Assembly (NCBI RefSeq): GCF_003334355.1
Contig: NZ_QOWP01000004.1
DNA from: Escherichia coli
GTDB taxonomy: Bacteria; Pseudomonadota; Gammaproteobacteria; Enterobacterales; Enterobacteriaceae
Reading direction: 5' to 3' (one strand)
DNA: 64,000 nt
The stretch's first letter is position 1, and each line of letters opens with the position of its first letter. Below are positions 3,226 to 51,045 of the stretch, one piece after another. The notes beneath the pieces are model-generated. The model was not told where the DNA came from. It searched no databases and saw only the letters and a program-made list of their open reading frames with translations. Made by a program: the position numbers and the translations under genes.

Positions 3226-3255
3226 AAAAAGCGCGTCGATCAGGACGCGCTTTTT
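3224..3255. terminator. Bidirectional rho-independent terminator between convergent yebQ and htpX
   Basis: aaaaaaa-gcgcgtc-gatcag-gacgcgc-ttttt: GC stem flanked by an A-run and a T-run. Confidence 0.7.
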
Positions 3256-3270
3256 AGTATTTACTTCATA

Positions 3271-4152
3271 TTACTTCAGGTATTCACCCGTACGCAGAGC
3301 TTCAATTCGTTTATCCAGCGGCGGGTGAGTCATGAACAACTCACTGAGCGATTTCGACTTACCGTTAATGCAGAAAGCCATCATGCTGGTTGCTTCTTGC
3401 GGTTCATAGCTGGTTTTCAGGCGCTGCAGCGCGGCAATCATTTTCTCGCGACCAACCAGTTTTGCCGAACCGGCATCAGCATGGAATTCACGATGACGCG
3501 AGAACCACATGGTGATAATGCTCGCCAGAATACCAAACACCAGTTCCAGAACCGTTGCAACCGCAAAGTAGATCAGCGGGTTGCCGTTGCTCTCTTCACC
3601 TTCATCACGATTTCCGCCCATAAAACCCGCGGCAAGCTGCGCCAGAATACGGGAAATAAAGATAACGAAGGTGTTCACCACGCCCTGAATCAGCGTCATG
3701 GTAACCATATCACCATTGGCGATGTGGCTGATTTCGTGAGCAATTACCGCCTCGGCTTCATCCGGGCTCATGTTCTGCAGCAAACCGGTGCTGACAGCAA
3801 CCAGAGAGGCATCACGGCGCGCACCGGTTGCAAAAGCGTTGATGTCCGGCGCATGGTAGATAGCCACTTGCGGCATAGCGATCCCTGCCTGACGAGCCTG
3901 GGTTGCTACAGTATTGACCAGCCAACGTTCCCTTTCGTTACGCGGTTGCTCGATCACTTCCCCGCCAACAGATCGTAATGCCATCCATTTGGACATCAGA
4001 AGCGAAACGAAGGAACCACCAAAACCGAACAGCAAGGCCATGATCATCAGCCCCTGAACGCTGCTCGACTGTATCCCTGTCAGGCTCAGTACCAGCCCGA
4101 AAACGACCATTACGGCCAGGTTCGTTAGCAGGAAGAGCGCGATTCGCATCAT
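3271..4152 (-). CDS. htpX: HtpX, heat-shock zinc metalloprotease (M48)
   Basis: 293-aa ORF, ATG start; HEISH zinc-binding motif present ([11 protein letters not shown]). Confidence 0.95.
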
Positions 4153-37134: not shown

Positions 37135-37746
37135 TCATAACGCGGCGCGTAGGGCTTCGCGAATTAATGTTTCACTGCTGGCGTCAGGGCGAGCGATTTT
37201 GCTCACCATGCGGCTTGCTTCTTGTGGTTTATAGCCCAGCGCCACCAGCGCGGCAACCGCTTCCTGTTCAGCATCGTCGGTTGCCGGGCTGGCAGGTGAT
37301 GTGAGTACCAGGTCGGCGGCTGGCGTAAAGAGATCGCCATGCAGACCTTTAAATCGGTCTTTCATTTCAACAATCAAGCGTTCGGCGGTTTTTTTGCCAA
37401 TACCCGGCAGTTTCACCAGCGCCCCCACTTCTTCACGCTCAACGGCATTAACGAACTGCTGCGCTGACATTCCGGAGAGGATCGCCAGCGCCAACTTCGG
37501 GCCGACGCCGTTGGTTTTGATCAACTCTTTGAACAACGTGCGCTCTTGTTTATTGTTAAAACCGTACAGCAGCTGCGCGTCTTCACGCACCACAAAGTGG
37601 GTGAAAACGATCGCTTCCTGTCCCGCTTCAGGGAGTTCATAAAAACAGGTCATCGGCATATGCACTTCATAGCCTACGCCGCCCACTTCAATTAACACCA
37701 GCGGGGGTTGTTTTTCAATGATGATGCCTCTGAGTCTGCCTATCAC
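37135..37746 (-). CDS. ruvA: RuvA, Holliday junction DNA-binding protein
   Basis: 203-aa ORF starting MIGRLRG; first codon reads GTG. Confidence 0.93.
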
Positions 37747-37796
37747 ATGACGCTCCTGCGTAATGAATCAAAGATAATGCTGTATGATAAAAAAAT

Positions 37797-37814
37797 GCTG
37801 GATAGATATCCAGC
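37797..37814. promoter_or_regulatory. LexA operator (SOS box) of the ruvAB promoter
   Basis: gCTGGatagatatCCAGc palindrome about 50 bp upstream of ruvA. Confidence 0.75.
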
Positions 37815-38020
37815 GAAGGATGAAGAAAACTTGCGAGGTGTCTCGATGATCTGAAAAATGGCACAGTATAATTTATTCTACAGGTTATTTTGGAAGCAAA
37901 TATTTTAATATTACATATTCAGTGAAAAAATGCGTAATAAAAATATACATTGCGCCTCCTGAAAAAATAAATTTTTTATGCTATTACGTATATTCGTATC
38001 TATTTCAATGGAATGACAAC

Positions 38021-38623
38021 GTGAATATTAATTACCCTGCTGAATATGAAATTGGAGATATCGCCTTTACATGTATAGGTGCTGCCTTATTTGGTCAAAT
38101 ATCAGCTGCATCAAATTGTTGGAGTAATCACGTCGGGATCATTATCGGTCATAACGGTGAAGACTTCCTGGTTGCAGAAAGCCGGGTCCCCCTTTCAACC
38201 ATCACCACGCTATCTCGTTTTATTAAACGTTCTTCTAATCAACGCTATGCTATAAAGCGATTAGACGCTGGGCTGACAGAACAACAAAAACAACGAATTG
38301 TTGAACAGGTTCCCTCCCGGCTACGCAAACTTTACCACACCGGTTTTAAATACGAATCTTCGCGCCAGTTCTGTTCAAAATTTGTTTTTGATATTTATAA
38401 AGAAGCGCTATGTATTCCGGTGGGTGAAATAGAGACGTTTGGAGAATTGTTAAATAGCAATCCGAATGCAAAACTCACTTTCTGGAAATTCTGGTTCCTG
38501 GGTTCTATTCCGTGGGAGCGTAAAACCGTCACGCCAGCCAGTTTGTGGCATCATCCGGGTTTGGTGTTGATTCATGCGGAGGGAGTGGAAACGCCTCAGC
38601 CGGAACTGACCGAGGCGGTATAA
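38021..38623 (+). CDS. yebB: YebB, permuted papain-like (YiiX/YebB family) putative amidase, unknown function
   Basis: GTG at 38021 gives 200 aa (alternative GTG at 37922 would give 233 aa); conserved Cys (QFCSKFV) and His (NHVGIIIG) candidates. Confidence 0.65.
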
Positions 38624-44035: not shown

Positions 44036-46183
<2,148 letters not shown>

Positions 46184-46347: not shown

Positions 46348-48777
46348 TTATGCCTGAATAGCTGGCTGATCAAACGCCGTTAACTTCGGCGCATTGCCCG
46401 TATATTTTTCGATATACACCAGCGCAGAGTTACCGGCACAGGCATTTGCCAGCTGCGAGCTGGGGATATCCGCCGTTAACACGTTCGCACTGCCGTTTTT
46501 ACACAAGCCATTTTCCAGATCTGGCCATGCACCTTCATGCACGCATACCACGCCTTTTTTGATCCCGTCAGTCACCACCGCGCCTGTCAGAATCTGACCA
46601 CGTTTGTTCCACACACGCACCAGATCACCATTCGCAATACCAAAGCGAGCAGCATCTTCGGTGTGAATAGTGATTGGTTCACGATCTGCAACCGCATATT
46701 TTTTACGCAGTTCCGCATAGTTAAGCTGACTATGTAAACGGTGTGCCGGATGTGCGGTCAGAAGCTGCAACTGCTTCTCGTCGGCGGTACCCTTCCACTC
46801 ATCAGGCGCAAGCCAGGTTGGGTGTGCCGGGCAATCCTTATAGCCAAATTTTTCCAGCGTTTTGGAGTAAATCTCAATTTTGCCGCTTGGCGTACCCAGC
46901 GCATTTTTCACCGGATCGGCGCGGAAATCACCATAACGAACGTACTGTTCGTTCTTCTCGCTGCGGCGCATTTCGATCAGTTTATTTTGCTGCCAGAAGG
47001 CATTAAACATCGGCATAGTCACGCGTTGCGCACGGGCACCTTTCTGAGCGGCATCATAGAAAAATTTCAGCCACGCCATTTCATCTTTACCTTCGGTATA
47101 GATCTCTTTTCCGCCAGGTTTGAGTAATTCCGCAAGATCGGCAAACACATCAAAATCGTTTCGCGCTTCAAATTGCGGAGCAACAACCTGCTTCATCGGC
47201 ACAATATGCTGGTTGCTGTAATCACCGGTCATCGTTAAGTCATTGCGCTCAAACGATGTGGTGATCGGTAATACGATATCTGCATGTTTAGCAGCTGCGG
47301 TCCAGTAGCATTCAGAAACGACGATCATCTCCGGTTTCTGCCATGCTTTAATCAGACGATTAGTATCCTGGTGATGGGTAAAGTTACCGCCACCCGCCCA
47401 CCAGATCATTTTGATATTCGGATACGTTTGCTCTTTACCGTTATGCTGATATTTGCCGCCAGGATTTTCCAGCGCATCGACGATACGGGCAACAGGAATC
47501 GCCGTCATTCCGCCATCATCAGCGGCCTCGCTGGCCTGTCCGGCAATCGCCGCAGACATTTCCGGCAGCACGCCGCCAACACGTGTCGGGTTGCCACCAT
47601 TGGAGTAATGATAAGAGAAACCAAAACCGCCGCCCGGTGTACCAATCTGCCCTAACATCGCCGCCAGCGTCACCAGCATCCAGTGTTTCTGTTCACCATA
47701 TTGCTGGCGCTGAATTCCCCAGCCTGCCATCAGCATTGTGCGATTCGCCGCCATCAGTTCAGCGAGTTTGACTATCTGCGCTTCCGGTACGCCAGTAATT
47801 TCCGCCGCCCAGGCCGCGCTCTTCGGAGTATTATCGCTCTTACCTGTCAGATATTCTTCAAACTGCGGATACCCGGTGGTGTATTTTTCAAGGAACACTT
47901 TATCGTGTTTGCCTTGTGTCATCAGGGTATGCGCAATCCCTAACATCAGTGCCACGTCGGTGCCCATATTCGGCGCGATCCAGGTGGCATTATCGCCAAA
48001 GAACTCAATGGTTTCGGAGCGGATAGGATCAATGGCAATCACTGGTTTGCCAGATTTTTTCAGCTGATGGAAGTATTCCAGCCCTTGCTCATCGGTACTG
48101 CTCCAGGCAATTTTTAAGGTATTCAGCGGGTTCATCCCCCACAGCACCACAACCTGGCTGTTTTCCAGAATCAGCGGCCAGGAGGTCTGCTGTTCATACA
48201 CCTCTACAGAACCGACCACATGCGGCATGATCACCTGTGCTGCCCCGGTTGAATAATCGCCGCTATGCCCGGAATAACCGCCCGCGAGGTTCATATAACG
48301 TTGCAGTAAGGTTTGCGCTTTATGCAACACGCCAGAAGAGCGCCAGCCGTAAGATCCGGCAAAAATGGCCGATGGTCCGTTAGCTTTACGAATACGATCG
48401 TGTTGCTCATGAATCAGTTTTAATGCTTGTTCCCAGCTCACCTGTACATAGGTATCTTCGCCTCGACCTTTCGCCGGTTGCAGTGGATTATCGAGATAGC
48501 TTTTTCTCACCATCGGATGCTGAATACGCGCCGTGGTGTGTACCTGATCCGCCGCCGTAGACTGTAAGGAGTTCGGTATGGTTTTCGCCAGCGCGCCTGT
48601 CGAAGAAACAATCTTGCCGTCCTTCACTTCTACGTTCATCGCTCCCCAGCGTCCCGCGGTGAGGATTTTACCGCCCTTCTCTTCTGCCCATGCGGGTAGC
48701 GGTGCTGCCGATGTCACCACCAGCGCTCCAGCGGCAATACCGCTGTGTTTAATAAATTCACGTCTTGTTAATGTCAT
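46348..48777 (-). CDS. torZ: TorZ (BisZ), molybdopterin TMAO / biotin-sulfoxide reductase
   Basis: ATG at 48777 gives 809 aa; twin-arginine signal [21 protein letters not shown]. Confidence 0.93.
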
Positions 48778-48801
48778 AACTTCCTCCCTGATCAACGAGG
48801 A

Positions 48802-49902
48802 TCACTGTTTCTCGGTAATATCTTTGGCGTTGTACTGGAAATACCGCGTTAAAATGTCCAGTTCGTTTTCGCTCATGCTGGTTCGTGCCCCCATTCCTTT
48901 GGCAATGGACGGCCACGCATTGACGGTGTAATGGTCGGCGGCAATAGGGGCATGACAACCAGCGCAATAGGTATCGTCAAGTTTTTCAGCGTATTGCCAT
49001 AGCGGTTTACGGTCCGCTAATGCGGGATCGGTAAGCGCACCCTGTAAAGACGCCTGACGCCATTGATTGCCGTATTCGTCAGCCTGCCATTCCCCGTTTA
49101 CCGTGAGCGCCTTGATACCTTCTTCACTTAATGTGGCTAGCGCCAGCCGTTGACCTGCCGCCAGGTAGAGCGTGTTTTCACTGCCCTGCATTTGATAACC
49201 CTGCAACAGAACGATCGGCTGTTTGCCACTGGCATCAACGACGGTGAGATCGGTACCAGGATTCACGGTAGCCAGCTCGCCTATGCGAGAAGTTTTGAAA
49301 GGATAAATATGTGCGCCATTAGTCACTGAAGTAGCGGTCTGACTTTCCAGCTCATGCGCCGCGTTGTCATCCATTTTTATTTCTGGCGGAAAATGGGCAA
49401 TGCCTTTATGACAATCGATACAGGTTTCGCCGCCCTTTTGTGCTTTGTTATGCATTTTCTGCGCAGATTCACTTTGCGAGGCAATATCCATGGCATCAAA
49501 AGAATGGCAACTACGGCACGTTGCAGAGTCAGTTGCTTTTAATTCTTTCCATACTGTTTCGGCCATTTCCTGGCGATGAGTTTCGAACTTATCGTCACTG
49601 TCTATTTTGCCGCTAACAAATTCATGATAAATATCTTTAGATGCTTTTAATTTAGCAAATAAATAATCCATCCCTGACTTTGGAATATGGCAATCGGCAC
49701 ATTCCGCACGTATCCCTTTCTGGTTCGAAAAGTGGACAGTTCCCTGATATTCCTCAAAAGGTTTACTCATCGAGTGGCAGGAAAGGCAAAATGCTGTATC
49801 CGACGTTTTATGTAAGGCTTTTTGCGCCAGCAATAACCCGCCGCCACCAACCACAACCGCTATCAGCAAAAACAATAACCCAATGCGTTTTTTCCCTCGC
49901 AT
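48802..49902 (-). CDS. torY: TorY, membrane-anchored pentahaem c-type cytochrome (NapC/NirT family)
   Basis: 366-aa ORF, ATG start; multiple CxxCH haem motifs (CLSCH, CADCH, CRSCH, CIDCH, CAGCH). Confidence 0.93.
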
Positions 49903-50210
49903 AGATTCCTCTAAATAAATTCCAGAACACCGAAATCATTGTATAATTAAATACACAACGAATTAACCGCTTGCATAACTCGGCACAACACTGCCTGAAA
50001 TAATCGATAAAGAATATGATTTATTACAATGTAATCATTAATTGCTAAGGAATAACCCAGTTGCTATTTAGAATATATATTTATCAGTTTTAGCAATTTA
50101 AATCCCATAATCAATGTGAATATAAAAAATATTTTTAGCACAACGCTATGCGCACTGTCACCCGCTCAACAGATCACGGTTATCGTTCGTTTTTTATACT
50201 GCTCAGGGAT

Positions 50211-51045
<835 letters not shown>

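Follow-up and report, generated by a model that had tools for sequence, protein, structure and literature searches.

The AT-rich spacer upstream of torYZ in Escherichia coli: a candidate promoter-operator with a ModE-type palindrome and H-NS-prone DNA

Introduction

Why is the torYZ operon of Escherichia coli so quiet, and does the AT-rich DNA in front of it account for this? TorZ is a third periplasmic S-/N-oxide reductase. In a preliminary description of the locus, about 300 bp between torY and the cutC terminator was called a long, strikingly AT-rich leader that resembles H-NS nucleation sites and might hold uncharacterised control elements for a poorly expressed operon. Each part of this description was followed up within the surrounding 64,000 nucleotides of E. 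coli DNA, here called the window, and by comparison with other genomes and published screens.

The premise of poor expression stands. Expression of torYZ is reported as low and uninduced, and the genome-wide table of transcription start sites (TSS) of Kim 2012 has no start inside the spacer; the sole TSS that it assigns to torY is the sigma-E start of MicL, 615 nt upstream (PMC3415461 supplement). In a 2025 study of a UPEC strain, torZ mRNA went up by 3-6 fold only, by HOCl, copper or paraquat (PMC12096835).

Position, boundaries and occurrence of the spacer

The spacer and its neighbours occupy the following positions in the window.

49903-50210: spacer between torY and the MicL/cutC terminator, 308 bp, GC 0.321
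46348-48795, minus strand: torZ
48802-49902, minus strand: torY, with its ATG at 49902-49900
49912-49907, minus strand: AGAGGA, Shine-Dalgarno sequence of torY, conserved, as is the ATG
50211-50518, minus strand: MicL small RNA, which bounds the spacer at its upper end (Rfam RF02654, 370 bits, E 4e-113)
50217-50243: cutC terminator hairpin and T-run (inverted repeat I3), the end of MicL
50290-51036, minus strand: cutC

The spacer fits exactly between the torY ATG, on the minus strand, and the 3' end of MicL. It is reported that the cutC terminator ends MicL, a sigma-E-dependent small RNA, at a good distance upstream of torY (PMC4102768). Neither K-12 RefSeq nor the other genomes compared carry any annotation inside the spacer. 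A segment of 481 bp around it was found in 5425 of 5426 complete E. coli genomes and matches several strains at 100% identity; the spacer itself is 100% identical to that of strain HS, and identity ranges from 92 to 100% across E. coli genomes. In K-12, the spacer corresponds to 1958133-1958440. In roughly 21 E. coli genomes it is interrupted by an insertion. It occurs at a median of one place per genome, and a repeat or mobile element was rejected on this ground. From a scan of TorY relatives, it was found that cutC and torY are adjacent only in Escherichia, where four further lineages have the order cutC-torY-torZ. Many TorY loci of Enterobacterales and Vibrionaceae are without cutC.

Base composition and H-NS binding

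The claim of striking AT-richness was borne out by the AT-content check, with a GC fraction of 0.321 in the spacer against a window mean of 0.510. Among 308-bp windows over the 64 kb, the standard deviation of GC is 0.043 and 0.33% are as low as the spacer; only one other place, the ruvA-yobI-yebB spacer, is equally low. The torY-cutC spacer has the lowest GC among neighbourhood spacers longer than 100 bp, and short spacers nearby are also AT-rich (znuA-znuC, GC 0.31). The AT run aatatatatttatcagttttagcaatttaaat quoted in the preliminary description was located at about 50072-50103. The stated length of about 300 bp holds for about 240 bp but not for the terminator-proximal 70 bp (50140-50210), where GC is 48%. 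The segment that is likeliest to bind H-NS is the TpA-rich core.

50003-50135: AT core, TpA-rich, GC 0.21

As a criterion for H-NS, an AT content of at least about 65% over at least 100 bp was used; the spacer has 68% AT over its 308 bp and the core has 79% over 133 bp. TpA steps are dense, at 0.110 in the spacer against 0.042 in the window, which places the spacer in the top 0.2% of windows. The observed-to-expected ratio of TpA is 0.97 in the spacer and 0.71 in the window, and thus the usual depletion is absent. AA/TT steps are relatively depleted, and the number of A-tracts is ordinary (4, with a window mean of 3.2). Curvature was predicted by a self-written rough wedge model that is useful for ranking only, and the peak bend of the spacer reaches no more than the 82nd percentile in the window. 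Neither strongly curved DNA nor phased A-tracts find support in this rough model or in the ordinary A-tract count.

Binding of H-NS to this DNA in vitro is already in print. Shimada 2014 marks the torY-cutC spacer 'HNS', meaning that it holds one of 987 H-NS sites from genomic SELEX (PMC3946193). The resemblance to H-NS nucleation sites therefore survives in part: the SELEX site and the AT- and TpA-rich composition agree with it, but strong curvature is not predicted. Matches to the high-affinity H-NS 10-mer TCGATAAATT reach 8/10 at best, and 3 were found where 0.8 are expected in shuffles, which is weak evidence.

49998-50013: a pair of 8/10 matches to the H-NS 10-mer that overlap, with ATCGAT at the centre

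On the whole, the H-NS reading of the spacer is plausible, as an in vitro SELEX entry that had been published before. No link between hns mutants and torY or torZ was found in the literature searched, and from composition and in vitro binding we infer that H-NS may occupy the spacer in vivo. The spacer is similar to H-NS-silenced promoters, such as those of proU, bgl and csgD, in that a weak promoter is covered, and preceded on its upstream side, by an AT- and TpA-rich tract, binding in vitro is recorded for H-NS and for RNA polymerase holoenzyme, and the operon is poorly expressed. Unlike in these systems, the tract extends over about 240 bp only, between stretches of normal GC, strong curvature is not predicted, and the H-NS motif matches at 8/10 only.

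The word 'uncharacterised' in the preliminary description needs a similar qualification. The spacer does lack annotation, but binding of both RNA polymerase and H-NS, and reportedly of ModE, was already recorded in published screens. The element is of an ordinary type, and its main protein-binding facts are already known from high-throughput tables. That the spacer could hold control elements is well supported by the ModE-type palindrome, promoter candidates and conserved islands described below.

A ModE-type palindrome in front of torY

The ModE operator has the consensus CGnTATATA-N6-TATATAnCG, with a TAYAT-N7-TAYAT core. A palindrome of this type was found close to torY.

49937-49960: ModE-operator-type palindrome, 24 bp, read on the minus strand as CGTTGTGTATTTAATTATACAATG, 35-58 nt before the torY ATG

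In K-12, where it maps to 1958167-1958190, its left arm is CGTTGTATA; at 49954, K-12 has A and the window has G. This consensus was checked against palindromes that were located by pattern in the K-12 promoter regions of modA (CGTTATATTGTCGCCTACATAACG), moaA (CGCTATATACATGATTACATAGCG) and dmsA (CGATGTATACAAGCCTATATAGCG), and a position weight matrix (PWM) was trained on these three. The torY palindrome has 4 mismatches to the consensus in the window, 3 in K-12 and 2 in E. albertii; its right arm in E. coli ends with AATG, not AACG. It scores 14.9-18.1 bits, against about 27 bits for the three training sites, and is the second-best PWM match in the 64 kb. In shuffles, the P value is 0.002-0.003 by PWM, and by mismatch count it is 0.008 for K-12 and 0.04 for the window allele. 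AT-rich DNA readily matches TATAT-type motifs, which is a caveat for any ModE match. Another ModE-like match, at 50003-50030, was rejected, with 5 mismatches and a CGAT that is lost in E. albertii.

The torY site is similar to the ModE operators of modABC, moaABCDE, dmsABC and yghW in being a 24-bp dyad at a molybdoenzyme operon. The operator of modA is described as overlapping the core promoter, and the torY palindrome likewise overlaps a core promoter candidate. Unlike known ModE operators, the E. coli copy is degenerate (3-4 mismatches), and its position would predict occlusion, not activation, of a molybdoenzyme operon.

No text that ties ModE to torY or torZ was found in the literature searched. 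Kurata and colleagues, in 2013, reportedly obtained ModE genomic-SELEX sites at yghW and torY, and are said to have named two new ModE-dependent transcripts, transcribed from the strand complementary to yghW (morA) and to torY (morB). In K-12, the yghW ATG is preceded, at a distance of 14-37 nt, by a perfect ModE palindrome (CGCTATATATTGTCATATATAGCG), in the same geometry as at torY. The perfect palindrome at yghW is in keeping with this account, and the torY site is thus most likely a rediscovery. The sequences beside the yghW and torY palindromes have no similarity to each other. Judging from the DNA, ModE may occupy the torY site in vivo; which promoter serves torYZ, and whether ModE would raise or lower expression, are likewise put forward as proposals in what follows.

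The torY upstream region in other Enterobacterales

When the regions upstream of torY in E. coli and Citrobacter were compared, the only homology was 28 bp around the palindrome, of which 25 are identical; the alignment score is 41, against a null of 21.9+-3.0. Palindromes of the ModE type with 1-3 mismatches were found upstream of torY in seven further genera of Enterobacterales: Citrobacter, Trabulsiella, Entomohabitans, Yersinia (massiliensis), Budvicia, Limnobaculum and Leminorella (one locus). They are absent upstream of torY in Vibrionaceae. The neighbours of torY differ among the palindrome-bearing loci (uspF/torD, ydcS, guaA, evgA or citG), and the palindrome therefore travels with torYZ.

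The relatives differ in the rest of the control region. A perfect FNR box, mostly TTGATGAATATCAA and 73-102 nt before the torY ATG, is present in 13 of 15 Citrobacter-type torY loci, and the other two have one mismatch; together, the boxes with 0-1 mismatch span -72 to -102. In Citrobacter, Trabulsiella and Entomohabitans, the ModE-type palindrome is located upstream of this box. Its distance from the ATG is 58 nt in Escherichia against about 308 nt in Citrobacter. An FNR box (TTGAT-N4-ATCAA, as expected near -41.5 or -61.5) was not found in the Escherichia spacer, where the best matches have 2-3 mismatches and shuffle P values of 0.49-0.99. Since dmsA is reported to be controlled by both ModE and FNR (PMC12096835), the Citrobacter-type relatives have a dmsA-like control region. 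FNR control has apparently been lost from torYZ in Escherichia. Compared with FNR-plus-ModE promoters such as those of dmsABC and napF, torYZ belongs to the same enzyme class and its Citrobacter-type form bears both sites, whereas the Escherichia form is without the FNR box.

Conserved islands in the Escherichia spacer

Alignments of 6 and 12 Escherichia sequences, including E. albertii, were compared with the 4-fold degenerate sites of torY as the benchmark. Several islands stand out.

50000-49985, minus strand: invariant 16-mer TTTCAGGCAGTGTTGT, identical in 12/12 sequences, run-length P 0.0005
50010-50042: conserved block C, GC 0.15, with invariant TAAATCATATT at 50023-50013
50016-50042: imperfect palindrome with 13-nt arms, in block C
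50070-50115: conserved block B, GC 0.20, with invariant AAAACTG and, within it, a weaker promoter-like match TTAAAT-18-TATATT
50016-50048, plus strand: 10-codon ORF (MIYYNVIINC) with a weak Shine-Dalgarno sequence, open in 12/12 Escherichia sequences

In the AT core (50003-50135), identity is 69% in E. albertii and 81% in E. whittamii, where the 4-fold sites of torY are 52% and 70% identical, respectively; these two are the most distant of the sequences compared. The islands persist among species whose torY 4-fold sites are 52-80% identical, whereas the terminator-proximal 70 bp and the segment 49963-49984 change as fast as 4-fold sites or faster. Conservation peaks in the most AT-rich segments, and this implies that the composition is maintained and did not arise by drift.

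The 16-mer exists in a single copy per genome and did not match any of the transcription factor consensuses tried. A sigma-54-like GGCA-N-TGCC within it was rejected for its wrong spacing and because E. albertii has lost the TGCC half. Consensus scans of the Escherichia spacer gave nothing beyond chance for FNR, CRP, ArcA, NarL, IHF, TorR, Fur, CpxR and CusR, nor for CueR, SoxS/MarA (marbox), OxyR, PhoB, IscR, NsrR, Lrp, sigma-E and sigma-54. A GalR operator was predicted in silico at K-12 1958198 (PMC5110547); it is located in the least conserved segment, 49963-49984, and is therefore probably non-functional. The 10-codon ORF is a candidate coding sequence only, read from the DNA, and could possibly be due to chance. 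A 25-codon ORF on the minus strand is not conserved among the 12 sequences.

Promoter candidates

Three sigma-70 candidates were considered.

49966-49938, minus strand: proximal candidate TTAATT-17-TACAAT, 10.45 bits, the best on the torY strand
49919-49947, plus strand: divergent candidate ATTCCA-17-TATAAT, 8.6 bits
50161-50132, minus strand: distal torYZ candidate GTGACA-18-TAAAAA with a TGn-extended -10, 7.0 bits

The proximal candidate is one of 17 with such scores on the same strand in the 64 kb. It implies a TSS at about 49931 and a 5' UTR of about 29 nt. Its -10, TACAAT (49943-49938), is inside the ModE-type palindrome and reads TATAAT in two further lineages of Escherichia; conservation of the -35 does not extend to E. 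albertii. A stricter scan for the sigma-70 consensus called no promoter anywhere in the spacer. The two arms of the palindrome form back-to-back -10 elements, TACAAT towards torY and TATAAT on the plus strand. From its position, the divergent candidate would start a plus-strand transcript at about 49954, running into the AT tract; it is a possible promoter of the 'morB' of Kurata and colleagues.

In Shimada 2014, an RpoD-holoenzyme SELEX site is entered for the torY-cutC spacer, which is classed there as type B, leftward (PMC3946193, Table 2/Table S2), and the torYZ promoter predicted there, GTGACA-18-TAAAAA, is the distal candidate (PMC3946193). The RpoD-holoenzyme peak is at K-12(v2) 1956436, about 50182 in the window, with an intensity of 0.10 (PMC3946193 Table S1). 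An RpoS-holoenzyme peak is at K-12 1956162, about 49908 in the window (Shimada 2017, PMC5493296). Thus, holoenzyme peaks map to both ends of the spacer, that of RpoS proximal to torY and that of RpoD distal.

The spacer as a proposed promoter-operator

Taken together, we lean towards the view that the spacer is a compound promoter-operator of torYZ, in which one or more core promoters next to torY are overlain by a ModE-type operator, an H-NS-prone AT core lies upstream, and no FNR box is present. According to this scheme, molybdate-bound ModE at 49937-49960 would block RNA polymerase in both directions, or would control the divergent transcript. In vivo, H-NS would coat and silence about 190 bp of TpA-rich DNA upstream of the palindrome, with its core of 21% GC. 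The Escherichia spacer also has no FNR box, unlike the FNR-plus-ModE arrangement of the relatives. A ModE-type operator, an H-NS-prone core and the missing FNR box may together explain the low and uninduced expression of torYZ, and this combination offers a testable account of its silence in the laboratory.

Some observations count against the promoter-operator reading. In physiological terms, it would be odd for ModE to repress a molybdoenzyme operon. The position of the RpoD SELEX peak, at the distal end, speaks for the distal promoter and, with it, for a genuine long leader. Neither H-NS nor ModE nor FNR accounts for the conserved blocks B, C and D. The poor conservation of the proximal -35 in E. 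albertii and the empty result of the simple promoter scan are further points of this kind. Three features keep some interest: a 16-mer that does not vary, FNR control that Escherichia has apparently lost, and a ModE site in an unusual place, on top of the promoter of a molybdoenzyme operon.

The first alternative takes the word 'leader' literally. It is proposed that torYZ is transcribed from the distal promoter, starting at about 50125, with an AT-rich leader of about 222 nt, where H-NS nucleates and blocks initiation or elongation; the conserved blocks, which lie downstream of this start, would then work within the RNA or as sites for H-NS. The published promoter prediction and 'HNS' mark (PMC3946193) and the RpoD-holoenzyme peak at about 50182 fit this well, though the peak is weak. 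Conservation speaks both ways. The -10 TAAAAA is invariant in the six-sequence alignment and reads TAATAA in one later-added E. coli strain of the 12-sequence set, so that TAAAAA with its upstream TG is kept in nearly all Escherichia sequences. However, this -10 is without the final T, the whole candidate reaches 7.0 bits only, and the -35 is not conserved, the stretch that bears it being deleted in E. whittamii. Nor does the TSS table of Kim 2012 have a start there (PMC3415461). At the RNA level, folding of the putative 222-nt leader is no better than that of shuffles (z -0.38), and an Rfam search at E<=1 returned MicL only, with no Moco riboswitch. Alifold of the plus strand gave no conserved structure either (consensus -10.7 kcal/mol, covariation term -0.52). 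A riboswitch or structured leader was rejected on these three results. The spacer is similar to the Moco riboswitch leader of moaA in that a molybdoenzyme operon is preceded by much non-coding sequence; unlike that leader, it has no Rfam match (E<=1), no fold signal and no start in the table of Kim 2012. The 'leader' of the preliminary description is therefore unproven, all the more as the best promoter match leaves a UTR of about 29 nt. We regard transcription from the distal promoter as unlikely, and the spacer is best read as a promoter-operator rather than as a proven transcribed leader.

A second alternative takes the conserved AT-rich blocks as parts of a small plus-strand gene distinct from torYZ, a divergent ModE-controlled transcript (the reported 'morB') that starts at about 49954-49986. 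The tract would then mainly be the body of this gene and not control DNA of torYZ. Such a gene would account for the perfect TATAAT of the divergent candidate inside the palindrome, and the invariant 16-mer and blocks C and B come just downstream of such a start. The 10-codon ORF, open in all 12 sequences, would lie inside it, but it is tiny and its Shine-Dalgarno sequence is weak. The yghW locus, the reported site of 'morA', has matching geometry and a perfect palindrome; the putative identification with 'morB' follows the 2013 study by Kurata and colleagues. The RNA has no conserved structure by the plus-strand alifold, no terminator is evident on the plus strand, where the MicL hairpin is without a T-run, and no gene is annotated there in K-12 or other genomes. 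We consider such a gene to be rather improbable.

A more far-reaching version of the promoter-operator reading can also be drawn, in which torYZ has been rewired in Escherichia: an ancestral FNR-dependent promoter was lost, the ModE operator came to sit on the core promoter, and this promoter now drives both torYZ and a conserved plus-strand small gene that runs through the AT tract and takes in the invariant 16-mer, blocks C and B and the 10-codon ORF. This is a speculative proposal to which we give little weight. If it were true, the molybdate status, and not oxygen or the substrate, would gate torYZ and the plus-strand unit, and the product of the small gene, be it transcript or peptide, would serve a separate function in molybdenum or S-/N-oxide stress physiology.

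Finally, it is very improbable that this is an ordinary AT-rich spacer with only a weak promoter, possibly a junction scar of the arrival of torYZ beside cutC in Escherichia: the restriction of the cutC-torY adjacency to that genus, the rapid evolution of the terminal 70 bp and of 49963-49984, identity down to 92% within E. coli, and nearby short spacers of similar AT content such as znuA-znuC (GC 0.31) would agree with it, but the most AT-rich segments are the best conserved, the 16-mer (run-length P 0.0005) and the other islands are kept across species, the palindrome is conserved across genera, and three proteins, namely H-NS and the RpoD and RpoS holoenzymes, bind the spacer in vitro by SELEX.

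Sequence variation and ModE-type matches

The palindrome before torY is polymorphic within E. coli, where A or G occurs at window 49954, position 7 of the palindrome on the minus strand. The A allele, CGTTGTATA, is carried by K-12 and most other E. coli, and the G allele, CGTTGTGTA, which has one more mismatch to the ModE consensus, by the window strain, UTAK-4 and E2348/69. Matches of the same type are found at other genes:

cmoA, within the coding sequence, window 44769-44792: CGTCATATTGACGCCTATAAAGCC, top match of the whole window to the ModE PWM (18.2 bits)
L048, the yghW locus, 3252-3275 (K-12 NC_000913.3 3146751-3146774): CGCTATATATTGTCATATATAGCG, perfect ModE-type palindrome

The cmoA-internal match is identical to the modA operator at 18 of 24 positions, and may be either a chance occurrence or an intragenic ModE site. 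The yghW palindrome lies 14-37 nt before the start codon of the gene and overlaps its Shine-Dalgarno region in K-12.

torYZ loci of other genera

In Citrobacter, Trabulsiella and Entomohabitans, a perfect FNR box is found 73-102 nt before the torY ATG, and a ModE-type palindrome is placed about 300-380 nt upstream. This layout is drawn from the Citrobacter portucalensis locus and 14 similar loci.

L017, the C. portucalensis locus, 2193-2216 and 2421-2434: ModE-type palindrome and FNR box

Here torYZ adjoins a torA-like gene, torD and uspF. The chromosomal context varies between genera, and also inside Citrobacter, among the comparison loci L003-L033; against window 46348-49902, the identity between Escherichia and Citrobacter is only about 60% for TorY and about 78% for TorZ.

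Other features of the spacer and its surroundings

A start site has been given to torY in a published table, at K-12(v2) 1956771 with a 615-nt "UTR" (Kim et al., 2012; PMC3415461). This is a mis-assignment of the sigma-E start of MicL, whose 5′ end is at window 50518 and whose upstream sequence in that table is GGAACTT...TCCAATCA; users of the table could be misled. The spacer itself contains a short reading frame:

Window 50016-50048, plus strand: 10-codon ORF, MIYYNVIINC, open in 12 of 12 Escherichia sequences

It reads MIYYNLIINY in other lineages, and in E. albertii it is longer, at 25 codons; the Shine-Dalgarno of this putative ORF is weak. Elsewhere in the window, a GC content of 0.36 or less over 308 bp is reached only in the ruvA-yobI-yebB spacers (37675-38200; minimum 0.299), and the ruvA spacer also bears the "HNS" mark (Shimada et al., 2014, Table 2; PMC3946193).

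Insertions within the torY spacer are indicated in 21 of 5425 E. coli genomes, because the spacer is split between two places there. In E. coli DS26-1 (L037, NZ_CP035879.1, 3232-4001), IS1A and an adjoining deletion, from about window 50143 downwards, have left the strain without the torY N-terminus and with only a small part of the spacer. In E. coli 214-4 (L002, 19013-20053), torY is annotated at a length of 1041 nt, against 1101 nt, and a gap of 84 nt separates it from torZ, which suggests a C-terminal truncation. The same strain has pyk as a pseudogene.
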